From: Dictyostelium discoideum | Lineage: Eukaryota | Assembly: GCA_000004695.1 (NCBI GenBank) | Contig: CM000150.2 | Span: 4,000,001 to 4,064,000, forward strand | Length of the DNA: 64,000 bases | Direction of reading: 5' to 3' | Shown here: positions 9,301 to 64,000 of the stretch, piece by piece | How the letters are laid out: every line of letters begins with the position of its first letter | Numbering within the stretch: the stretch's first letter is position 1 | Translations under genes and position numbers: made by a program | Notes under the pieces: generated by a model | Seen by the model: only the letters and a program-made list of their open reading frames with translations | Databases searched by the model: none | What the model was told of the DNA's origin: nothing

Positions 9301-9414
9301 ATAGTGAATTGTCGTTGTGGATACAGTTGAAATCTCCTGCGATAATAGATACATGTTGGGATTGGTTTTGTTTCTGGAATCGAACATGCGTCTGTTGACA
9401 TCACGAAAGAAAAG

Positions 9415-9497
9415 TCCGGCTTGCCAGATTCGAACTAGCAACCGATTGATCACTTTCTATACTACAGTCAATCGCGCTACCATTGCGCCAAAGCCGG
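9415..9497 (-). tRNA. tRNA-Tyr (anticodon GUA) with a roughly 11-nt intron 3' of the anticodon
   Basis: The minus-strand sequence is CCGGCTT TG GCGC AATGGTA GCGC G ATTGA CTGTAG[TATAGAAAGTG]A TCAAT CGGTT GCTAG TTCGAAT CTGGC AAGCCGG A, followed by a CTTTTC terminator. The cloverleaf pairs correctly, with GCGCAATGGTAGCGC in the D-arm and GTTCGAATC in the T-loop. A canonical intron after position 37 is expected for eukaryotic tRNA-Tyr. Confidence 0.8.
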
Positions 9498-47520: not shown

Positions 47521-48802
47521 TTTACTACATATAAAATTTATAATTATTTTTTATTTTTTTTATTATTTTATTTTATTTTATTTTTTTTTTTTTTTCATTT
47601 AAAGGGTTAAAAATAGCAATATATTTATATTTACTAACTTACCACTACTACTCTCTATTTTTTATTTTTTTATTTAATTTTTTATTTTTTATTTTTTTTT
47701 TCACTCTCTACATTCGAACTGCCCACAATTTTTTTATATAAAAAATTTAATTTGTTTATATTTTTTGTATTTTATATCTTTTTTTTTTTTTTAAATTATT
47801 ATTATTTTTTTTTTTTTTTTTTTAATTATTATTATTTATTTTAATTATTTATTTTTTTAATTATTTATTTTTAATTATTATTATTATTATTATTATTATT
47901 TTTTTTTTTTTAACTTATTACAATTTTTTCAAAAAATAAAAATAAAAAAAAATAAAAATAAAATAACATAAACCACACACAATAATAATATTATTATTTT
48001 TTATATTCAATAAACACAATACAATAATAATAATAACAACAAAATACAACACAATAATAATTATTTTTTCTTTCAACTAAATACTATTTTATTTTATTTT
48101 TTATAATTTTTAATTTTTATTTAATTATTTAAAAAATAATTATTCCAATCAATTCTTATTATTATTTTATTTTTCCAACTAAAAAAAAAAAAAAAAAAAA
48201 AAAAAAACCAATAATTTATTTATTTTAAATTTAAATTTATTATTATTATTATTATTATTTTTTTTTTTTATTTTTTTTTATTATTTTTTTTTGATTCGTA
48301 ATAAACTAAATAAAGAATAAAGTATTAGAATTAGAATCATTGAATGAGAATTTGAAGGGTCAGTTGGAATATTTTCAAACTAAATTTTTAGAATCAAATT
48401 TAAATAGCGAAGGAAAGGATATTTCATCATGTTTAACAGAAATTTATAATAGTTTAAGTTTGGATAATAATAATAACAATAGTAATAGTAATAGTAATAG
48501 TAATAATAATAGTAGCAATAGTAATAATAATTCATATTCAAATTTTAATTCTAATAATAATACAACAAACAATACAAAAGTTATTAAAAATAGAAATTTT
48601 AAAATAAATTTAACAAATAGTAATAGTACAAATTCAAGTCCTTATATTTTTGGAAATAATAAAGATAATAGTAATAATAGTAATAATAGTAATAATAATA
48701 ATAGCAACACTGAGTTAAGTAATGACCATTTATCTTTAGAAGATAATATAGCAACAACAAATACAACAACAACTACAACTATAAATACATCTAATAGTAA
48801 TA

Positions 48803-48876
<74 letters not shown>

Positions 48877-49324
48877 CCAACATCAAACCGTCCACCAGTA
48901 GCACCTAGATCATTTATTAGATCAAATTCCGATACATTTATAACACCACCAGGTTCACCAACATCAAGTCGAAATAGTCCAACCAATAAATCATCACCTC
49001 AATTTTTATCACCACTTTCTAAATCACCATTATCACAATCAACTCAATCCACAACAGTATCATCTCCTTCGCCATCTTGGACAACAACAGTACCACAATC
49101 AAAAATGAGATCTGAAACAATTGTACAATCAAAATCACCCTATAGTCCAGATACAAATATATCAAATAAATTAATAAATGAATTAGCGTCAAATATTGGT
49201 GCTCCAAATAGTAATGGCTCTGAAAGTCCTTCTAAAAATTCACCAAGATCATTAAATAGTAATAATAATAATAGTAGTGCAACAACATCAATAACAACAC
49301 CACCAACAACATCAACACCAACAC

Positions 49325-49356
<32 letters not shown>

Positions 49357-50103
49357 GAAAGAAGACCAGAAGATAGAAGAAGTAAAACATCACCATTTCC
49401 AAATGTTGGTACAACAACACCACCATTATCAAATAGTGCACATTTAGTTAGAACGCAATCTGCAAGTGGTGCAAATGCAGTTAAACCTCAATCACAATTA
49501 AGTACAAGTTGTACAGTCAATATGATAGGTGGTGGTGGTACACCACGTAGTAACAATAGTAGTAATGGTAGTTTATATCATTCAATGAGTAGTAATGGAT
49601 TAATTGAAAATTTATCAACATCATCATCATTATCATTATCATCAACATCACCATCACCAAATAATAGTCAACAAAATTTAACGAATCCATTTGAAATTGG
49701 TGCAGATGATGAATTGGAAGTATTGGATGATCCAAGATTGGTGATGGTAAAAACTGAAAATGGGTTCATAGTTAAAGGTGGCACAATTGAAAAATTAGTA
49801 AATCGTTTAATTGCAAAACATGACCCAGATTTCACATCAGCTTTCCTTTTAACCCACAAATCATTCACAACTTCAATTGAATTGTTAGACCTTCTAATTG
49901 AGTTTTATGTAAATAATAAAGATTCCTCATCAATAAATTCGAATTCATCTTCCTCCTCATCATCAGCAGTAGCATCATCATCATTTTCAAATATAAATTG
50001 TAATATAAGTGATTTAAGTAGTAGTACAAGTTCAACAAATTCATTATTAATAAATAGTATAACAAATAGTCCAATTATAAATAGTAACAATCAAAATAAT
50101 CAA

Positions 50104-50148
<45 letters not shown>

Positions 50149-51387
50149 CAATTAGAAATTAATGGAGATAAAAAGAAAAAAGCAATTAGATTAAAGATTA
50201 CAAATGTTATAAAATCATGGGTTGATAAACATTATTATGATTTTTCAGAGGATAAACAATTGACTTTGAAATTGGATCAATTCATTACCAATCATATTAT
50301 GTTTGATATGGATAAGATTGGATTCAATTTGAAGAGATTGTTAACCAATGATCGTGTTGTACCAGTGCCAACCTTTACCCAGGGCCCGCCAACACCAATA
50401 CCACCCAAAATGAAATCAAATGGGTCGGAAATCAATTTCAAAGATTTAGATCCAACAGAGATTGCAAGACAATTGACACTCTATGAATCTGACCTATTCA
50501 GAAAGATTGGTGCAAAGGAGTGTTTGGGTCAAGCTTGGAATAAGGATGGTAAGGAAGAGAATGCACCAAATATAGTCTCGTTCATAAAGAGATTCAATCA
50601 AGTTTCGTCCTGGGTTGCCACAGAAATCGTTAGACAGGAGAAATTAAAAGATAGAGTTTCCTACATAAAGAGATTCATTTTGGTGGCTCAAGAATGTAGA
50701 AAACTAAATAACTTTAATGCCACAATGGAAATTCTATCTGGTCTTCAAAATTCCTCAGTTTATCGTCTAAGAAAAACTTGGGAACGTGTTGAATCAAAAC
50801 CATTACTAAAGAATACTTTAGATGAATTAATGAGTTTAATGTCAAGTGGTGCAAATTATAAAAATTATATTCAAGAACTTCATAATATTCATCCACCTTG
50901 TATACCTTATTTAGGTGTTTATTTAACTCATTTAACTTTTATAGAAGATGGTATGAAGAATGTATTAACAACAACAACTGCAACAACAACCAATACTACA
51001 ACTACAACAACAACAACTACAACAACAACAACAACAAATACTACAACTTCAAATAATAATAATCAACAACAATTAAATGGTGCAAATCGTTCATTTGATG
51101 ATGTTATTATTAATTTTGAAAAATGTAGAAAAATATCTGTGGTCATTAGAGAAATTAAACAATATCAACAACAACAATATCACCTTCATACTGAAGAGTT
51201 TACTTTACGTTATCTAAGTAATTTACCTTCAATTCAAACTCAAAAATCAATGTATAAATTAAGTTTAATTTGTGAACCAAAAGAAAAAGAAACTTCAAGT
51301 TTTGATAGTGGTTATGGTTCAGTTTCTGATCGACCTTCAAAAAAAGAATTTTCAGTGACTTCACTTTTAAATTCTTTTAAGTCTTAA
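47424..51387 (+). CDS. Ras guanine-nucleotide exchange factor (RasGEF N-terminal/REM plus CDC25-homology catalytic domain), about 1037 aa with extensive Asn/Ser/Thr low-complexity
   Basis: The main exon is 48316..51387 (ORF-track 48340-51387). Its REM domain reads GGTIEKLVNRLIAKHDPDFTSAFLLTHKSFTTSIELLDLLIEFY. Its CDC25 domain reads EIARQLTLYESDLFRKI...FNATMEILSGLQNSSVYRLRKTW...IPYLGVYLTHLTFIEDG. A candidate 42-nt first exon at 47424..47465 (MDHTECNNRIEYLQ|GTAAAT) splices in phase 0 to an ..aaagAG acceptor at 48315. This first exon is tentative. Confidence 0.65.
48780..48870. repeat. (AAT)n coding microsatellite (poly-Asn) inside the RasGEF gene
   Basis: An uninterrupted run of about 28 aat units. 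Confidence 0.85.
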
Positions 51388-51947: not shown

Positions 51948-52745
51948 ATGATAAGAAATTTAAAAAATTTAAATTTAGTTGGAAATAGATTTTATAGTAG
52001 TGGTGAAATTAAACATACAACAATTGTTAGTAATGGATTTGGTGGTATGTTAAATATTTTAGGTGAGAATCAACATGTTACATTTAATAAGATTGAATAT
52101 AATGCAGATGGTGATTATGCAATTTGTAAACATCAAGTTGAGAATAAACCATTCGAACCAACAATTGTAAGCAAAAAAGTATTTGAAAGTAGATTAACAG
52201 ATGCTCAAATTGGAGAGATTCAAAAACTTCGTTCAACCAATTCACAAAAACAATTAGCAGAGAAATTCCAAACTACACCATATATCATTTCACGTGTTTC
52301 AAGAGGTACACCAGAGAAACGTCAATCATTGATCGATCAATTCCTATTGAAGAATCCAAAAAAGATCGTAGATAGTGAAGATGTTAAAAAGAATCGTTTA
52401 CAAGATTGGTTCCAACGTAATCAACAAAGAGAATACGAACAAAAGGTTATCAAAGCTGCTACTTCTTTTGAACGTATTAAAAGACAAAGACATTCACTCA
52501 ATGCTCATAATCAACGTATTCATAAAGAATCTTATGAATTTGTTCAAAAATCTCAAATCTCTGAATCTGAAGAAAATCAACCAAGAGTTTTCACAATGGA
52601 AGAAAAGAGAGCAAAAGAAAAAGAATTATCAAAACTTCGTCGTAGAAAAGTTACAACTGAAAAAGATAAAATAAATGAAAGTAATCAACGTATTAAAAAT
52701 AAAACTGAGAGAAAGATTCAAAGAGAAGAACAAGGAAATAATTAA
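51948..52745 (+). CDS. Neugrin/Rrg9-family (DUF4050-like) protein, probably mitochondrial, 265 aa
   Basis: The N-terminus looks like a presequence (MIRNLKNLNLVGNRFYSS). The conserved block is GEIQKLRSTNSQKQLAEKFQTTPYIISRVSRGT (neugrin-type LA..F.VS...I.RV motif). The C-terminus is basic and coiled-coil. Confidence 0.45.
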   Translation: MIRNLKNLNLVGNRFYSSGEIKHTTIVSNGFGGMLNILGENQHVTFNKIEYNADGDYAICKHQVENKPFEPTIVSKKVFESRLTDAQIGEIQKLRSTNSQKQLAEKFQTTPYIISRVSRGTPEKRQSLIDQFLLKNPKKIVDSEDVKKNRLQDWFQRNQQREYEQKVIKAATSFERIKRQRHSLNAHNQRIHKESYEFVQKSQISESEENQPRVFTMEEKRAKEKELSKLRRRKVTTEKDKINESNQRIKNKTERKIQREEQGNN

Positions 52746-53111: not shown

Positions 53112-54599
53112 ATGAATAAATTTGTTAGAGTTGGTCAATATGTTAAATCAAATTATCCACTTTATTTAGGTAGTAAACCAATTACAAAAACTTCATCAAG
53201 TTTAGAAGTTATTGATAAATTTACCAATGAAATTGCAAGTAAAATACCAATGGCAGATAAAGAAATGATTGAACAATCAATTGTTATTGCACAGAAAGCA
53301 TGTGAACCAATGAGACAATTATCAGCAGCAACCAAGAAACAAATTCTTTTAAATATTGCTAATGATCTTGAAAAGAGAGCAGATGAATTTGCTAAAGCAA
53401 TAGTTGTTGAAGTTGGTAAACCATTGGTTGATGCAAATGCAGAAGTTGGTAGAGCAATCGATACATTTACATGTGCAGCAGAGGAATCAATTCGTCAATA
53501 TGGTGAGCAGATTCCATTGGATATTTCATCACGTAATTTGGGTTTCCAAGGTATAACTAAAAGATTCCCAGTTGGTCCAATCTCTATGATTGCACCATTC
53601 AATTTCCCTTTGAATTTATGTGCTCACAAGATTGCACCATCGATTGCTGCTGGTTGTCCATTCGTTTTGAAACCATCAGATCGTACACCAATCAGTGCAA
53701 TGTTGTTGGGTGAACTATTGGCAAAACAAACACCACTCCTTCCAGAGGGTGCTTTCTCAATATTACCAACCACCCATCAAGATGCTTCCATTTTAAGTAA
53801 AGATGAAAGATTCAAGTTATGTTCATTCACTGGTTCACCAGCTATTGGTTGGAAAATTAAAAATGAAGCTGGTAAGAAAAAGGTGGTTTTGGAATTAGGT
53901 GGTGATGCTGCTTGCATCGTTGATTCTGCAACTCAACAATCAAGATTACCATCAATCGCTCAACGTATACTCTTTGGTGGTTTCTATTCTCAAGGTCAAA
54001 GTTGTATCTCTGTTCAAAGAGTTTTCATTCATGATTCACTCTATGATCAAATGAAACAACTATTGATTGATGGTGCTAAACCATTAATTCAACGTATGGG
54101 TGATCCAATGGATCCAACCACTTTTGTTGGTCCAATGATCACTGAACATGATGCTAAACGTGTCGAATCTTGGGTTAATAATGCTGTCTCCAAAGGTGCA
54201 AATGTTTTAGTTGGTGGTAAACGTAATGATCATTTCATGCAACCAACAATCTTGGAGAATTTACCATTGGATACTGAAATCTCTTGTAAAGAAGTATTTG
54301 GTCCTGTATTCTTTATTGAAAGATTCAATGATTTCAAACAAGTTGTTCAACGTGTAAACTCTTCAGAATTTGGTTTACAAGCTGGTGTCTTTACTGATGA
54401 TATTCATAAAGCCTACTACGCCTTTAACAATATAGAAGCTGGTGCTGTCGTTATCAATGATATCCCTTCAGTTCGTGTTGATGCTCAACCATACGGTGGT
54501 GTTAAAGAATCTGGTTTCGGTCGTGAAGGTATCAGACATACAATCGAAGAATATACTGAATTAAAATTAATGATTTTAAAAGATATTGGTAAAATTTAA
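53112..54599 (+). CDS. Aldehyde dehydrogenase superfamily enzyme (NAD(P)+-dependent, 495 aa), possibly non-phosphorylating GAPDH/GapN-like
   Basis: Single ORF. It carries the ALDH Glu active-site motif (VVLELGGDAA) and Cys active-site motif (FYSQGQSCISVQRVFIH), with the F-G-P and E-SGFGREG C-terminal motifs. Confidence 0.8.
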   Translation: MNKFVRVGQYVKSNYPLYLGSKPITKTSSSLEVIDKFTNEIASKIPMADKEMIEQSIVIAQKACEPMRQLSAATKKQILLNIANDLEKRADEFAKAIVVEVGKPLVDANAEVGRAIDTFTCAAEESIRQYGEQIPLDISSRNLGFQGITKRFPVGPISMIAPFNFPLNLCAHKIAPSIAAGCPFVLKPSDRTPISAMLLGELLAKQTPLLPEGAFSILPTTHQDASILSKDERFKLCSFTGSPAIGWKIKNEAGKKKVVLELGGDAACIVDSATQQSRLPSIAQRILFGGFYSQGQSCISVQRVFIHDSLYDQMKQLLIDGAKPLIQRMGDPMDPTTFVGPMITEHDAKRVESWVNNAVSKGANVLVGGKRNDHFMQPTILENLPLDTEISCKEVFGPVFFIERFNDFKQVVQRVNSSEFGLQAGVFTDDIHKAYYAFNNIEAGAVVINDIPSVRVDAQPYGGVKESGFGREGIRHTIEEYTELKLMILKDIGKI

Positions 54600-55931: not shown

Positions 55932-56308
55932 TTATTTTTTATTATTATTCTTTTTTGAATTCCTTTTTATTATATTTTTAAATAAAAAAATAAAAACATT
56001 ATAATTATTTATCCAACAATAAAAAAAGAATAAATAAATACTTGAAAATGTAAATATTAAAACATCGAATGAAATTGGTTTAATTTGAATAAAACTCATA
56101 GTTGCTTTTGTTGGTTGATAAAATTTTACAGTATTTTCAATCTCTAATGTACCAGTTTGAAAAATATCTATTACACAATTTAATTTGTCATTATATTCTT
56201 TAAATATTAATTCAATACCATTAATTAAATCAATTTTATTATTATTATTTTGATTATTTATAATTGTTTGTTTTCTATTTTCATTATTATAATTATAATT
56301 ATAATTAA

Positions 56309-56357
<49 letters not shown>

Positions 56358-56498
56358 TATTATTTCAATTGGTTTTAAAGGTTGAATATAAGGAAACATT
56401 AAATTTGTATTTAATAAAACTTGATACATTGATAACATTGATTGTTCATTTATATCTAAAGAAAATTCTAAAAGTTTTGATAAATCATTATTATTATA

Positions 56499-56539
<41 letters not shown>

Positions 56540-57998
56540 TAATATTATAAATATATGATAATAATGAGGATGCAATTATTTTTGTATTTCTTTTTAAGAT
56601 TGGTAAACTTAATTTTGAATTTGTTGATAAAATTCCATTTGTAGTTGGTGTTGAAAATTGTTTTTGTGTAATTGTCATTGAATCAATATGTTTTCTTGAA
56701 AAGATTTCATGTTTAAAATTAATTTTTGGATTTGAAATATCAATTTTCTTTTGAATGATTGTTAAATTAATATCATCATTTTTTGCAGAGAATTGGTAAT
56801 TTCCAACAAGATTTTTAATTTTTAATGATTTTGTTAATGATTTTGAAATTTGAAGATATAATTTATTTTCATCATTTATTAATTCTTTTTCATTTTCATT
56901 TTCATCTCCATCATCATTATTATTTTTAAAAGTTGAATATGATTTCATACCAATTGAATCAATACATAATACATGATCAATTGAATTTAAAAATGATTTA
57001 GATTGTTGATCAATCCATCTTTTAACACCAAATTCATTTAAACTTGATGCACCAACTAATGTAAATACTAAATTGAATGAAATTGGTTGTGTATTTGGAT
57101 TTGAATATAACATTGAGAAAACTCTTAATAATTCAAAGATTGCTATTGAATTACCATGATTATTAATTTCACCTGATAATGCAGGTATAATACTATACGA
57201 ATCATAACTTGCTAATATTACAATTGTTTTTAGTGGTTGTGATGAATTTAATGATGATCGTTTACATTTTAAAGTTGTTTGAAAATTATAAGAATTTGGA
57301 TTATTTATAATTTCAGGTAACCCTAATGAAATTAAAAATTTAAAATCATTTTGTTGTTTTGGTGTGATAATTTTATCTTTTGAAATTTGGTGGTATGCAT
57401 ATTTAATTAATTCTTCATATTCTTCTTTTTTTACAAAATAAATTGGTACTTTAATTTTAATTTTTAAATTACTTGTATAAATTTTATCATATTCTGTTTC
57501 ACTTAATAATAATTTATCAATATTATCATCATTTTCACTATTTTCATTATTTTCATCACGATTAGGTAATGATGATGATGTTGATGACGGTGATGATGAT
57601 GATGATTGAAAAGGTTCAGTTGAAATTTTAACAATTATTGAATCAACTTTTTTTGAATTTAATATTAAAATAGTATCAATATTGAAATCTGATTGATCAA
57701 CTATTACTGATTTTCCTTCATAATCTGTTGATTGATAAAATTGTTTTTGATAAACCATTAATGATGAACTTAGACTTGCTTTTGAAGGTCCATTGATTGT
57801 TGACCCATTTTTATATTGTAACATTCTATATGCAAATATTTTATTATTTTCATTTCCTACTCTACTTTTATGTAAATTAATATTTGAAAAAAATGATTTA
57901 CTTTCATTTCTTTCAATTAGTATTAATAAAAATAGTACTATTATTATTAAATATAAAAATGATTTATTTAACATATTATTATTATTATTTAATTTCAC
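55932..57998 (-). CDS. Nicalin-like protein (nicastrin/M28-peptidase-fold, type-I membrane; 688 aa)
   Basis: The protein has a signal/TM N-terminus and a C-terminal TM (DVLIFTFSSIYLFFFYCWINNYNVFIFLF). The conserved nicalin block is KTIVILASYDSYSIIPALSGEINNHGNSIAIFELLRVFSMLY...LVFTLVGASSLNEFGVKRWI. Several poly-Asn inserts are present. Confidence 0.6.
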
Positions 57999-58449: not shown

Positions 58450-58483
<34 letters not shown>

Positions 58484-58683
58484 AGAATGGTTACATTGAT
58501 TTTTTTTTTTTATATTTTATGCATTTTTGAGTTTCTATTTAAATAAAATATAATAAATCATTGTTAAAAAGAAAAAAAAGAAAATATTAGTCCAGTATTT
58601 TTTCAATTTTTCGCACCCAAAATTATTTTAAGTTTTTTTTTTTTGTCCAGTGACAGACCATTAATTTTATTTTTTGGTTTTTG

Positions 58684-58714
<31 letters not shown>

Positions 58715-58776
58715 TTCATTTTATCAATTATCATTTATTCTAATAATAATATTAAAAAAAAAAAAAAAAAAAAAAA

Positions 58777-59072
58777 ATGGAACCATCAATAGACAATAAA
58801 CCATCTTTTAGAATTAATTTTACAAAAATGCACGGTGCAGGAAATGATTTTGTAGTTTTTGAAAAAAATAAAGTTGAAAGATTAAATGGCGATAAATCAA
58901 CAGTGACCTTTGAAGAAATTGTTGGATTTACAACAAAAATAGCACATAGAAAATTAGGAATAGGTTTTGATCAATTAATTGTCATTGATGATAATCCAAT
59001 TGATAAAAATGCAGCATATGGTATGGATGTAATTAATTGCGATGGTAATATTGGTATGTGTGTTATTAAAAC

Positions 59073-59105
<33 letters not shown>

Positions 59106-59949
59106 TATATATTTTATTTAAATAGTTAACAAATCATAATTATATTTATTAAATAAAGAGGTAATGTGTGGAAATGGTGTTAGATGTTTTTCAAAATATA
59201 TAGTTGATAATAAAGTTTTATCAAAAAATTTAAAAGAACAATTAAATTTTGATGGTGACGATGATATTGAACAAATTATTGAGACTAAATCAGGTATTGT
59301 CAAAACATATCCATTATTAAAACATCATTTAAATAATAAAGATAATGATGTTATAATGGTGAAAGTTAATATGGGAACACCAAAAGTTTCAAGATTTATT
59401 AACGAAATCGATCGTCATATTCCAAAAGTTTTAACAAATCAATCACCAATTGAGAGTTATATGTATACCATTGATATCGGATTACCATACTGTTCAAAAT
59501 TAGAATGTGTTTATGTAACAGTTGGAGGCAACCAATGTGTTGTATTTATCGATAGAAATATTGAATTGGGTTATTTAGATTCTTCATATGGTGATCATAC
59601 AAAATTCTCAACAATTGATTTTAAAGAGATTTCAGATATTATTCAAAGTAATGTAAATGGTTTTGATGATATTCCAAATGTTGAATTTGTAATTCAATCA
59701 CCACAAGATAAACTTGAAAATAAAGTTATCTCAAGAGTTGTTGAAAGAGGTAATGGTGAAACATTAGCATGTGGTACTGGTGCATGTGGTGTAGCAATAT
59801 CATCAATTCTCAAAGGTTATTGTAATGAAAATACTGAAATTACTGTTGAAATGCCTGGTGGTAAATTATTAATTCAATGGAATCCAAATAATGAAATTTT
59901 TAAAACAGGTCCAGCAACATCTGTCTTTAAATCTCAAATTTTAATTTAA
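58777..59949 (+). CDS. Diaminopimelate epimerase-fold (DapF/PhzF superfamily) protein, copy 1, about 355 aa, 2 exons
   Basis: Exon 1 is 58777..59053. A phase-1 GTATGT intron follows. Exon 2 is 59159..59949. The DapF signature motifs are FTKMHGAGNDFVVF (N-terminal), NCDGNIE|VMCGNGVRCFSKY (first catalytic Cys) and ERGNGETLACGTGACGVA (second catalytic Cys). Confidence 0.7.
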
Positions 59950-60149
59950 ACTTAAAATAAAATCATTCACTAATTTAATTATTATTATTATTATTATTTT
60001 TTTCTCAACTAATTCTCAAATTTATGGAAAATTTTTTTTAAAAAAAAAAAAAAAAATCCAAACCAGGGCAATTCCATTGCGCAATCTTTTTTTAAACAAA
60101 AAAAAAAAAAATAAAACAATTTTCAATTTCCAATTTTTAATTTTATTTT

Positions 60150-60186
<37 letters not shown>

Positions 60187-60238
60187 ATTGGTCATTATTT
60201 CGATTGTTATCTTTTAAGTTAATAATAAATATTTTAAA

Positions 60239-61396
60239 ATGGAACCAATATTAATTACAAATAAGCCATCATACAGAATTAATTTTACAAAAATGCAAGG
60301 TGCAGGAAATGATTTTGTAGTTTTTGAAAAAAATAAAGTTGAAAGATTAAATGGTGATCAATCAATAATGACCTATGAAGAAATTAGTGGATTTACAAAA
60401 AAATTATCACATAGAAAATTAGGAATAGGTTGTGATCAATTAATTATTATTGATGATAATCCAAATGATAAAAATGCAGCATATGGTATGGGTGTAATTA
60501 ATTGTGATGGTAATATTGGTATGTATATGTGTGTAAAAAAAATAAACCAAATTGAATAATTAACATAAATATATTTTAACAATAAAATATTTAAACAAAT
60601 AGAAAATATGTGTGGAAATGGTGTTAGATGTTTTACAAAATATATAATTGATAATAAAGTTTTATCAAAAAATTTAAAAGAACAATTAAATTTTGATGGT
60701 GATGATAAAATTGAACAAATTATTGAGACTAAATCAGGTATTGTCAAAACATATCCATTATTAAAACATCATTTAAATAATAAAGAAAAGGATGTTATAA
60801 TGGTGAAAGTTAATATGGGAACATCTAAAATATCAAGATTAATTAATGAAATTGATTATAATATTCCAAAAACTTTAAGTAAACAATCACCACTTGAAAG
60901 TTACATGTACACCATTGATATTGGATTACCATACTGTTCAAAATTAGAATGTGTTTATGTATCAGTTGGTGTTAACCAATGTGTTGTATTTATTGATAGA
61001 AATATTGAATTGGGTTATTTAGATTCATCATATGGTGATTTCTCAAAATTCTCAATGATTAATATTCAAGAGATTTCAGATATTATTCAAAGTAATGTAA
61101 ATGGTTTTGTTGATATTGCAAATGTTGAATTTGTAATTCAATCACCACAAGATAAACTTGAAAATAAAGTTATCTCAAGAGTTGTTGAAAGAGGTAGTGG
61201 TGAAACATTAGCATGTGGTACTGGTGCATGTGGTGTAGCTGTAGCTTCAATTCTCAAAGGTTACTGTAATGAAAATACTGAATCTATTGTTGAAATGCCT
61301 GGTGGTAAATTATTAATTCAATGGGATTCAAATAACAGTGAAATTTTTAAAACAGGTCCAGCAACAACTGTCTTTAAATCTCAAATTTTAATTTAA
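60239..61396 (+). CDS. DapF/PhzF-fold paralog, copy 2, about 357 aa, 2 exons, in tandem with and co-oriented with copy 1
   Basis: Exon 1 is 60239..60518. A phase-1 GTATGT intron follows at the position homologous to copy 1. Exon 2 is 60603..61396. The motifs are FTKMQGAGNDFVVF, CDGNIE|NMCGNGVRCFTKY and ERGSGETLACGTGACGVA. It is about 85% aa identical to copy 1. Confidence 0.7.
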
Positions 61397-61440
61397 TTTT
61401 TTTTTTTTTTTTTTTTTTTTCTAAACAAAATAATAAAAAT

Positions 61441-61490
<50 letters not shown>

Positions 61491-61904
61491 TACAATTATT
61501 TTATTTAAAATTTTATTAAATCTAGAAAAAAATGGTTTTAAAATATGAAAACCTGTTTAATTTTAAATTAAAAAAAATAAAATAAAAAAAAAAAAGAATT
61601 AATATATTTTCAGTATTGTAAAAAAAAAAATAAAATCAAATAATTACTTTTAAAAATTTTTTAAATAATTAATAAACGAATGTTTTGGTTGTTATAAAAA
61701 TTCCTAAACAGAAAAATAGAGTAAATAATAATAGATAAAATAAAAATATATTTAGAGGTTTATGTGAAAAAAATGCTATATAAGGTTCTACCATTATTTT
61801 TTTGAATATATAATATGTTTAAATTTTTTAAAATTAAATATTTTAAAATTAAAATAATAAAAAATAGTAATAATAAAAAAAAAAAAAAAACAAAAATAGT
61901 TATA

Positions 61905-62614: not shown

Positions 62615-62865
62615 TTAATTTTTATTAAATTTTTTTAATTTAGTGGCATGTAAAATTACTTTAATTGTTGTACTTTTCTTATAAAGTGTAACTAATACGA
62701 CAACAATAATTGATACAACTACTACTGGTACAACAATAGCCACTGGCAATATCCATTTCTTTGAGTTACTATCATCACATTGATTTTTGAAATCACTATC
62801 TACTAAAACTGAAAAATCTATTTATAAAATATATATACATATATTAAATTTAGTATTTGTATTTT

Positions 62866-62915
<50 letters not shown>

Positions 62916-64000
62916 TATATATAATAATCATACCAGGATCAACAACACATTCATTTATACAATGTGGTAAATTTAATGTAATAATAATTGAATTTGAATC
63001 AGTTTTTGAAGTTGTTGAAAAGAAAGTTGGTCTTGAATCAGAGATTACTTTATTAATAAATCTACCAGCTAAAATTTTATTATTTTTTGAAATTTTGATA
63101 TAACTAAAAGTGGATTGATCATTAATATTTGTTGTATCAATTTCAGTATTTTTTGTATTACAATCTTCATTTTTATTAATTTGATCAACTGCTGATATTA
63201 AATCCAATTGTAGTGTATTTAAAGTACTTTGATAAGTATAATTTGTAATTGAAATTGTGAATTTAATAGAACCAGAATCTACAATGAAACTTGTATTGGC
63301 AAAAGTAAATTGTTTACCTTTCTCATCTTTAATCTCCTCAATAATAGTTTTTACAATGCACCCATTTAAAGTACCATTAATGAATTGTTTAAATTCATAA
63401 ATATTTGATTCTTTACTTTCAGTATTATTAAATGACCAATTCTTTAATAATGGATACTCTTTCACAACATTATTATTAAAATCAATTTCTTTTAATGATT
63501 TAAAATAAATTTGAAATTTAGTTTGATTATCTAAAATATTTGTTGAGCCTGATCCTGTGTCAATTGTTGTGTTAACACCTGCATTGTTATTGTTATTATT
63601 ATTATTACCATTTCCATTGCCAACACCATTTGTATTAATTACAGCACTACAATCATATAAAGTAAAACCTGAAAAACATTTACAAATTCCCGTTGTGGTA
63701 TTACAATTACCATTATTTGAGCATTTATTTGGACATTCAATTGTTGGATTTATATATTTAAAAATGTTATTACCAACATAGGTATAATCATTTTGAGTTA
63801 TTGTTACATTTTTAATACCACTACCTTTTGGTGCATTACATTTAATTACAGAACTTGAATTAAATATAATTGGTAAACATGGTTGATCACCGATTTTAAC
63901 TGATAAATCAGTATGTTTTGTACCAAAAAATCCATATAAACTAATTTCACCACCATTTATAGTTGTAGAATCAGAAGATGAGATATAATGGTAGGCTGAT
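62615..64000 (-). CDS. ComC-like glycoprotein paralog, 3' portion only (IPT/TIG, EGF, ComC-like C-terminal domain, TM exon). The 5' end lies outside the window.
   Basis: On the minus strand, exon n-1 is 64000..62934 (the ORF-track ORF 62818-63465 is its end running into the intron). A phase-1 GTATGA intron follows. The TM exon is 62817..62615 (DFSVLVDSDFKNQCDD..WILPVAIVVPVVVVSIIVVVLVTLYKKSTTIKV...*). The domain blocks are collinear with 2803-5323 and 34417-38553. Confidence 0.65.

Follow-up and report, generated by a model that had tools for sequence, protein, structure and literature searches.

The diaminopimelate (DAP) epimerases (DapF) of bacteria and plants, represented by the structures from Escherichia coli (4IJZ), Haemophilus influenzae (1BWZ/2GKE), Arabidopsis thaliana (3EJX) and a cyanobacterium (9MRO), have in common a two-domain fold and the cysteines Cys73 and Cys217 (numbering of the E. 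coli and H. influenzae enzymes, used here for all active-site positions). In the DapF-DAP complex of Corynebacterium glutamicum, the reacting carboxylate is bound by backbone and side chains of Gly-Asn and Gly-Thr and the amine by Glu212, while Asn74, Asn159, Asn194 and Arg213 recognise the distal L-centre, and alanine mutants of each of these residues, N159A (equivalent to E. coli Asn157) included, are nearly devoid of activity (PMC5296763). Cys73, His159, Glu208 and Cys217 are listed as the catalytic residues of 1BWZ (PMC3581254). The O-ureidoserine racemase DcsC (7VDY) and the bifunctional DapF/glutamate racemase of Chlamydia (NF038284) are precedents for a DapF scaffold that acts on other amino acids with two-thiol chemistry, and bacterial-type DapF is encoded in the nucleus of the bacterivorous protists Salpingoeca rosetta, Paulinella ovalis-like cells and Herpetomonas muscarum, in some cases with introns or alongside DAP decarboxylase (LysA), and as a rule without a complete DAP pathway (PMC7971027, PMC3322482, PMC3846528). 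Here we describe a tandem pair of DapF-like genes, gene 1 (DDB_G0270030) and gene 2 (DDB_G0270032), in a window of 64,000 nucleotides of the Dictyostelium discoideum genome (contig CM000150.2, positions 4,000,001 to 4,064,000). Both proteins carry the catalytic thiol pair of the family, and because two near-universal active-site residues have been lost, they are probably no longer ordinary DAP epimerases.

An earlier note on this DNA, made from the sequence alone, had proposed a DapF-fold pair with both catalytic cysteines and had named three Pfam profiles for comparison, DAP_epimerase (PF01678), PhzF (PF02567) and proline racemase (PF05544). In the Pfam scan PF01678 was the sole match, with two domains and with E-values of 6e-31 and 1.5e-29, and the bit scores of 107 and 103 lie above the cut-off of 34.7. 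The NCBIfam DapF equivalog TIGR00652 was matched over profile positions 1-268 of 270 with 155.2 bits (cut-off 114.65), so that, together with the PF01678 E-values, a chance match is not an issue. The closest solved structures found by sequence search were all DapF. An AlphaFold2 model of gene 1 (mean pLDDT 86.8) was compared to the PDB with Foldseek, and ranks 1-26 were all occupied by DapF or DcsC chains with E-values from 7e-27 to 3e-18, target-normalised TM scores of 0.68-0.85 and identities of 20-29%. Profiles, fold and the cysteines C96/C297 (gene 1) and C97/C298 (gene 2) bear out the proposed DapF-fold pair.

There is next to no probability left for the idea that the genes encode PhzF-like isomerases, an alternative that the earlier note had kept, or proline-racemase-like enzymes instead of relatives of DapF. 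The fold is common to the whole superfamily and Foldseek does find both families, with E-values of about 1e-16 to 1e-15, but these are about ten orders of magnitude behind DapF. Proline racemase structures come no higher than rank 27 (12-16% identity) and PhzF structures no higher than rank 35 (9-14%), compared to the 20-29% of the DapF and DcsC chains. Neither PF02567 nor PF05544 gave a match at E<=1 in either protein and, because the 26 DapF/DcsC chains also rank first, both identities were ruled out. A PhzF-type active site, with Glu45 as acid/base and no cysteine pair, does not match either gene as the cysteine pair is present in both, along with the DapF-specific motifs GNDF, CGNG, NVEF, ERGxGET and ACGTG.

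Both genes are intact, consist of two exons each and are arranged head-to-tail on the + strand, from the ATG of gene 1 at 58777 to the end of the stop codon of gene 2 at 61396, which are exactly the limits that had been given for the pair of open reading frames. The spliced products of 355 (gene 1) and 357 (gene 2) amino acids are 100% identical to the proteins of the AX4 annotation, DDB_G0270030 (Q55CJ7, XP_646484) and DDB_G0270032 (Q55CJ6, XP_646485), respectively, and the UniRef name for both is already diaminopimelate epimerase. The two proteins contain the motifs KM(H/Q)GAGNDF, E-x-M-CGNGVRCF and ERG(N/S)GETLACGTGACG; the KMHGAGNDF and ERG motifs had been read correctly in the earlier note, and its E-x-CGNGxRCF was one residue short. 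Identity between the copies amounts to 86.2% for the proteins, close to the 85% estimated before, and to 91.7% for the coding sequences. An excess of about 80 residues caused by insertions had been reported, and both proteins are indeed 81-83 residues longer than E. coli DapF (274 residues). In gene 1, 86 residues are inserted, in a 12-residue N-terminal extension and about 10 internal insertions, the largest of which (15 residues) follows the strand with the GNPH motif. Both introns are of the GT..AG type and lie within a Glu codon two residues ahead of Met-Cys-Gly-Asn-Gly.

Fifteen active-site positions were compared by alignment to E. coli DapF. Asn11, Phe13, Gln44, Asn64, Cys73, Gly74, Asn75, Asn190, Glu208 (E288/E289), Arg209, Cys217 and Gly218 are kept in both genes and Ser219 is replaced by Thr in both, so that 13 of the 15 positions are conserved if the Ser219-to-Thr exchange is counted. 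The sub-site for the alpha-carboxylate and the amine, formed by Asn11, Gly74, Asn75, Gly218 and Ser/Thr219 (roles according to PMC5296763), is conserved throughout. The sub-site for the distal L-centre retains Asn64, Asn190 and Arg209 and has lost Asn157, which is replaced by Gly in gene 1, by Val in gene 2 and again by Gly in the orthologue from D. purpureum. Of the annotated catalytic residues His159 and Glu208 only the latter is kept, whereas His159 is Gln in both genes (Q218/Q219). The equivalent of Asn157 sits in a strand of sequence S-M-G-N-P-H-C, and in non-eumycetozoan homologues its column is Asn in 435 of 441 cases and the His159 column is His in 440 of 441. As judged from the alignment, the pair passes the family HMM yet departs from a canonical DAP epimerase in two residue-level features, the distal sub-site and the set of annotated catalytic residues.

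Compared to bacterial and plant DapF, with which they share Glu208, Arg209, Asn11, Gln44, Asn64, Asn75 and Asn190 as well as a TIGR00652 score over the cut-off, the two proteins thus differ by their roughly 80 extra residues and by the exchanges of Asn157 and His159; unlike those enzymes, they are encoded by nuclear, intron-containing genes in a host without the upstream DAP pathway, and identity over the fold alignments is limited to 20-29%. DcsC is matched with E = 1.5e-20, or 1.3e-42 when a profile is used, and the Chlamydia model NF038284 with 35-37 bits (cut-off 350); no specific relationship of the pair to DcsC was seen, as judged without a residue-by-residue comparison of active sites.

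Homologues that share the insertions of the pair were found in every dictyostelid group, in D. purpureum, Polysphondylium violaceum, Tieghemostelium, Acytostelium, Heterostelium and Cavenderia, and also in the transcriptomes of the protosporangiids Clastostelium recurvatum and Ceratiomyxa fruticulosa. What had looked like an oddity of one dictyostelid is a family with three or more lineages that extends through all dictyostelid groups and into two protosporangiids. In a neighbour-joining tree (276 columns, 200 bootstraps) all slime-mould sequences form one clade (bootstrap 98). Within it, class B consists of D. discoideum DDB_G0289455 and orthologues in all dictyostelids and has the full SMGNPHC motif. 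Class A, to which the window pair belongs, occurs only in group-4 Dictyostelium, where it forms a group with a bootstrap value of 98 on a long branch and is sister to group-4 class B (bootstrap 66). Class B proteins are 52-55% identical to the pair and resemble it in their eumycetozoan affiliation, insertions and intron site, and are unlike it in their full motif, their presence in every dictyostelid group and their shorter branch. Class C is a more divergent dictyostelid lineage with members in T. lacteum, P. violaceum, D. purpureum, D. citrinum, Acytostelium and Heterostelium. GNPH is kept in all class B, class C and protosporangiid sequences, and class A shows no variation in either cysteine, in Glu208 or Arg209 or in any of the remaining binding Asn residues. 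The three class C members that were read have C-A-N-G in place of C-G-N-G and W-Q-R-G-C-G-(V/I)-T in place of ERGAGET (Glu208 to Gln), and many members of this class, all with GNPH, contain long low-complexity inserts. The class C gene of D. citrinum shares a contig with the class A pair of that species.

An exhaustive profile search covered 1.84 billion representative proteins. Its top was made up of eumycetozoan sequences only, followed by bacterial DapF at 241 bits and below. These bacterial sequences came from sediment metagenomes, Thermodesulfovibrionia, Dissulfurispiraceae and Firmicutes, and a plant sequence, from Cuscuta, reached 214 bits. Among the longer proteins, the only other eukaryotes were Cuscuta (a plant) and Triparma (a plastid-bearing stramenopile), the rest of those checked being bacteria or unnamed metagenome contigs. 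Plants and cyanobacteria form a separate clade in the tree (bootstrap 100), away from the slime moulds, and a plant- or plastid-type origin was rejected. The slime-mould clade is placed among bacterial sequences, none of which is supported as its sister group, so that the phylogeny with bacterial and plant DapF proposed in the earlier note yielded the eumycetozoan clade and its separation from plants and cyanobacteria but no bacterial relative. The single intron occupies one shared site. It has phase 0 in class B of Cavenderia and D. discoideum and in class A of D. purpureum, and a slide by 1 nt gives it phase 1 in D. firmibasis, D. dimigraforme and both window genes of D. discoideum. An intron of phase 1 at the identical codon had been described before, which is right for both copies, but elsewhere phase 1 does not hold, since it is confined to the D. 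discoideum complex and the four other genes examined have phase 0.

Wide distribution, the clade in the tree and the common intron site support an ancient presence of the gene. Because homologues occur in all dictyostelid groups and in two protosporangiids, any transfer predates the split between Dictyostelia and these two protosporangiid genera, and on this distribution a DapF gene is shown to have been in the slime-mould lineage before Dictyostelia and Clastostelium/Ceratiomyxa separated. Dictyostelium is well known for bacterial-derived genes. A bacterium is the most probable source of slime-mould DapF, and a single early transfer is the simplest explanation of its ancient presence. Vertical inheritance from an early eukaryote, with loss almost everywhere else, is in our opinion unlikely. 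The gene is old and strictly vertical within Eumycetozoa, and the lack of a supported bacterial donor, with the nearest bacteria a mixture of Nitrospirota, Desulfobacterota and Firmicutes, speaks for such descent; against it, no other amoebozoan or Amorphea sequence is among the best 150 of 22,299 profile matches, the clade stands apart from the plant and cyanobacterial lineage, and independent DapF transfers into phagotrophs are documented for S. rosetta (PMC7971027), Paulinella ovalis (PMC3322482) and Herpetomonas (PMC3846528). Those protist genes have identifiable donors (alpha-cyanobacteria, Bacteroidetes), whereas no donor group is supported for the slime-mould clade, whose age is much greater and which has expanded into a number of paralogous lineages, including one with a degenerate motif.

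The tandem arrangement itself is of more recent date. D. purpureum, D. firmibasis and D. dimigraforme have one gene at the syntenic locus, and tblastn detected no second copy or pseudogene there within 6 kb on either side. Every D. discoideum strain, like D. citrinum, has the tandem pair. The synonymous distance (dS) between genes 1 and 2 is 0.143, compared to 0.28-0.34 between gene 2 and the single-copy orthologues (0.337 for D. dimigraforme). Given that dS between the copies is smaller than that between gene 2 and D. dimigraforme and that three relatives have one copy, the duplication is, by these distances, young and falls within the D. discoideum/D. citrinum lineage. An old acquisition followed by a recent local duplication had been the earlier interpretation, and it agrees with an old presence in the lineage and with the dS of the pair. 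Two class A gene models of D. citrinum (341 amino acids) lack the segment E-x-MCGNGVRCF-x-KYI, almost certainly as a result of a misplaced intron boundary in the automatic annotation and not of a real loss of the first catalytic cysteine.

Both reading frames are intact in at least five strains, and class A is under purifying selection, as orthologue comparisons give dN/dS ratios (omega) of 0.12-0.21. Between gene 1 and gene 2 omega is 0.52. When the single-copy orthologues serve as reference, 30 amino-acid changes are private to gene 1, among them V216G and S291N close to the active site, and 3 are private to gene 2. The per-copy dN/dS analysis proposed in the earlier note could be carried out by three-point estimates, which gave dN of about 0.059, dS of about 0.085 and omega of about 0.7 for the gene 1 branch, and dN of about 0.015 and omega of about 0.26 for the gene 2 branch. 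On the basis of the 30 versus 3 private changes and of these branch ratios, gene 2 is the parental copy, which is conserved, and gene 1 the fast one, relaxed or adapting. The introns of the two genes are 54% identical and their 300-bp flanks 58-59% (58477-58776 compared to 59939-60238, and 59950-60249 compared to 61397-61696), about what unrelated AT-rich DNA would give, as judged by expectation without a shuffled control. This restriction of similarity to exons suggests either fast turnover of AT-rich noncoding DNA by insertion and deletion or gene conversion limited to exons.

Taking these observations together, we hold it to be slightly more probable than its contrary that the class A pair encodes functional two-thiol epimerases of the DapF fold that act on a DAP-like substrate with altered specificity or kinetics and do not serve as the housekeeping LL-/meso-DAP epimerase. 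Specificity or kinetics should be altered because Asn157 and His159 are replaced while all else is kept. The proteins would be cytosolic amino-acid epimerases independent of pyridoxal phosphate. By analogy to the family, the thiolate of Cys96 (gene 1) or Cys97 (gene 2) would take the C-alpha proton and the thiol of Cys297/298 would give a proton back from the opposite face, with the helix ends of Gly-Asn and Gly-Thr binding the alpha-carboxylate and Glu288/289 binding the amino group. As to history, the observations show that the DapF gene of the slime moulds, most probably of bacterial origin, gained one intron and about 80 residues of insertions and then split into the canonical class B, the divergent class C and the group-4-restricted class A, in which the tandem duplication in the D. 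discoideum/D. citrinum lineage has left gene 2 conserved and gene 1 diverging fast. DDB_G0289455, as the canonical paralogue and presumed housekeeping epimerase, may together with LysA convert DAP of eaten bacteria to lysine, whereas class A would epimerise a DAP-like amino acid with altered specificity or efficiency. The earlier suggestion of a re-purposed epimerase is reasonable, and the central feature, loss of Asn157 and His159 of GNPH in the pair with a canonical paralogue elsewhere in the genome, had escaped that note.

Alternatively, both genes might encode ordinary diaminopimelate epimerases (EC 5.1.1.7) that, with LysA, perform a two-step salvage from prey peptidoglycan, the duplication then being a matter of dosage. 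We regard this as rather unlikely, even though the TIGR00652 equivalog score, the 13 of 15 conserved active-site positions, an Asn at +1 of the lost Asn157, the report of LysA in Dictyostelium (PMC3846528) and the ability of DAP to stand in for lysine through LysA in trypanosomatids are all in its favour. Both Asn157 and His159 are replaced in the pair, the N159A exchange almost abolishes the activity of C. glutamicum DapF (PMC5296763) and His159 is annotated as catalytic (PMC3581254); in addition, the canonical role is already covered by the full-motif paralogue DDB_G0289455, and a 30:3 rate asymmetry does not fit pure dosage selection. In a further and distinctly improbable explanation, gene 1 and perhaps gene 2 as well would be redundant after the duplication and either drifting towards lost catalysis or already serving as a non-catalytic binding protein (pseudoenzyme). 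The omega of 0.52 between the copies, the gene 1 branch values, the 30 gene 1-specific substitutions with V216G and S291N among them and the loss of one annotated catalytic residue (PMC3581254) could be understood in this way. Reading frames are, however, intact in all strains, class A persists in D. purpureum as well as in the D. discoideum complex, the two lineages that have it, at an omega of 0.12-0.21 between orthologues, and the invariance of both cysteines, Glu208, Arg209 and the other binding Asn residues across class A is not what such drift would produce.

Several points weigh against altered two-thiol epimerases of early bacterial origin. Both genes pass the HMM threshold by which NCBI names DapF. 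The class A protein of D. purpureum retains His159, from which it follows that the motif was lost stepwise, and this loss may represent tolerated drift; moreover, the Asn one position downstream (N217/N218) might substitute for Asn157. The gene 1 branch omega of about 0.7 fits simple relaxation. As to origin, long-branch attraction in a neighbour-joining tree of 276 columns could inflate eumycetozoan monophyly, above all for class C. By estimate, murein supplies little DAP in comparison with the lysine in prey protein, which makes the nutritional value of salvage questionable. The presence of LysA is the statement of one paper (PMC3846528), and no biochemical report for any dictyostelid DapF-like protein was found in the literature searched. 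A bolder version of the favoured reading is that slime moulds built a set of cytosolic two-thiol epimerases from one bacterial DapF (classes A, B and C, with four or more genes in D. discoideum) in which class A, with GNPH changed to GGNQ or GVNQ, acts on a substrate other than free DAP. It is put forward here tentatively and is more doubtful than not; candidate substrates are another D/L-amino acid or a DAP-containing muropeptide from digested bacteria.

Regarding the pathway, the amino acids essential to animals, among them lysine, are also essential to D. discoideum, a lysine-type auxotroph (PMC12923814), and LysA has been reported from both Dictyostelium and Polysphondylium (PMC3846528). 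Trypanosomatids can use DAP in place of lysine by means of this enzyme. Since LysA is reported for Dictyostelium, a two-step salvage of prey-wall DAP to lysine by DapF and LysA is, by this analogy, plausible for the family. The earlier expectation that a dictyostelid would not use the DAP pathway is therefore right as far as lysine auxotrophy is concerned and not in so far as LysA and a plausible salvage are considered. In our search for DDB_G0270030, DDB_G0270032, DDB_G0289455, their UniProt accessions and dafE, one 2008 microarray table was the only literature found. In it, the chromosome-1 PF01678 probe DDB0190752 ('diaminopimelate epimerase') shows vegetative expression that differs between cells fed Pseudomonas aeruginosa PAO1 and PA14, and DDB0189351/DDB0220128, dafE ('Diaminopimelate epimerase DafE, fragment'), also on chromosome 1, shows no PAO1/PA14 difference (PMC2474670). 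Each of the two probes may stand for one or other of the present chromosome-1 paralogues. The pair is part of the reference annotation, similar cases of DapF transfer to protists are on record and the genetic mechanism is in no way unusual. Three features apparently have no earlier description in the literature searched: the clade that spans Eumycetozoa, together with its paralogue classes; the degenerate GNPH motif in class A; and the strongly unequal divergence of the two tandem copies.

The coordinates of the pair and of flanking genes are compiled in the table. The window is AT-rich (21.9% GC), and the neighbours of the pair (RasGEF, aldehyde dehydrogenase, ComC) are unrelated to the DAP pathway. 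The gene order aldehyde dehydrogenase, large gene of unknown function on the - strand, DapF-like gene and ComC is conserved in D. firmibasis and D. dimigraforme. Bacterial contamination or a recent transfer is excluded by the 22% GC, the GT..AG introns, the eukaryotic neighbours and the conserved synteny, and the description of the genes as eukaryotised is fully consistent with their spliceosomal introns, AT-rich coding sequence and surroundings. Elsewhere in the window, ARAGORN reported a tRNA-like gene at 9414-9497 (- strand) with a four-base 'gtag' anticodon and undetermined identity, probably an intron-containing eukaryotic tRNA parsed under bacterial settings.

Table. Features of the DapF-like gene pair and flanking genes (window positions).
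Feature	Position	Strand	Details and basis
Gene 1 (DDB_G0270030) exon 1	58777..59053	+	codons 1-92 and first base of Glu93; translation 100% identical to XP_646484
Gene 1 intron	59054..59158	+	105 nt, GTATGT..AAAG, phase 1; site also used in orthologues
Gene 1 exon 2, stop codon included	59159..59949	+	
Gene 1 Cys96 codon	59167..59169	+	equivalent to E. coli/H. influenzae Cys73, first catalytic thiol; E. coli DapF alignment
Gene 1 G215-G216-N217-Q218	59524..59535	+	degenerate match to G-N157-P-H159; alignment and homologue columns
Gene 1 Cys297 codon	59770..59772	+	equivalent to Cys217, second catalytic thiol; E. coli DapF alignment
AT-rich spacer between copies	59950..60238	none	289 bp
Gene 2 (DDB_G0270032) exon 1	60239..60518	+	translation identical to XP_646485
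Gene 2 intron	60519..60602	+	84 nt, GTATGT..ATAG, phase 1
Gene 2 exon 2, stop codon included	60603..61396	+	
Gene 2 Cys97 codon	60611..60613	+	equivalent to Cys73; alignment
Gene 2 G216-V217-N218-Q219	60968..60979	+	degenerate GNPH motif; alignment and homologue columns
Gene 2 Cys298 codon	61214..61216	+	equivalent to Cys217; alignment
RasGEF gene	48340-51387		flanking
Open reading frame without Pfam match	51948-52745		flanking
Aldehyde dehydrogenase gene	53112-54599		flanking
688-aa Asn-rich open reading frame without Pfam match	55932-57998	-	flanking
ComC supersandwich-domain gene	62818-63465	-	flanking

D. discoideum does not synthesise lysine and lives on a diet of bacteria with diaminopimelate-containing walls, and DapF plus LysA would constitute a minimal route from the prey cell wall to an essential amino acid in a genetically tractable host. 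If class A does act on a substrate other than free DAP, this would be a new eukaryotic enzyme activity that processes bacterial cell-wall material. Because two near-invariant residues have been lost with the thiol pair preserved, class A is a clean test case for whether duplicates of a bacterial enzyme that has spent hundreds of millions of years in a eukaryote gain new substrates. The stakes are modest, and the pair is of value mainly because the salvage of DAP from prey, and the neofunctionalisation of a bacterial enzyme after its acquisition, can easily be put to the test in it.

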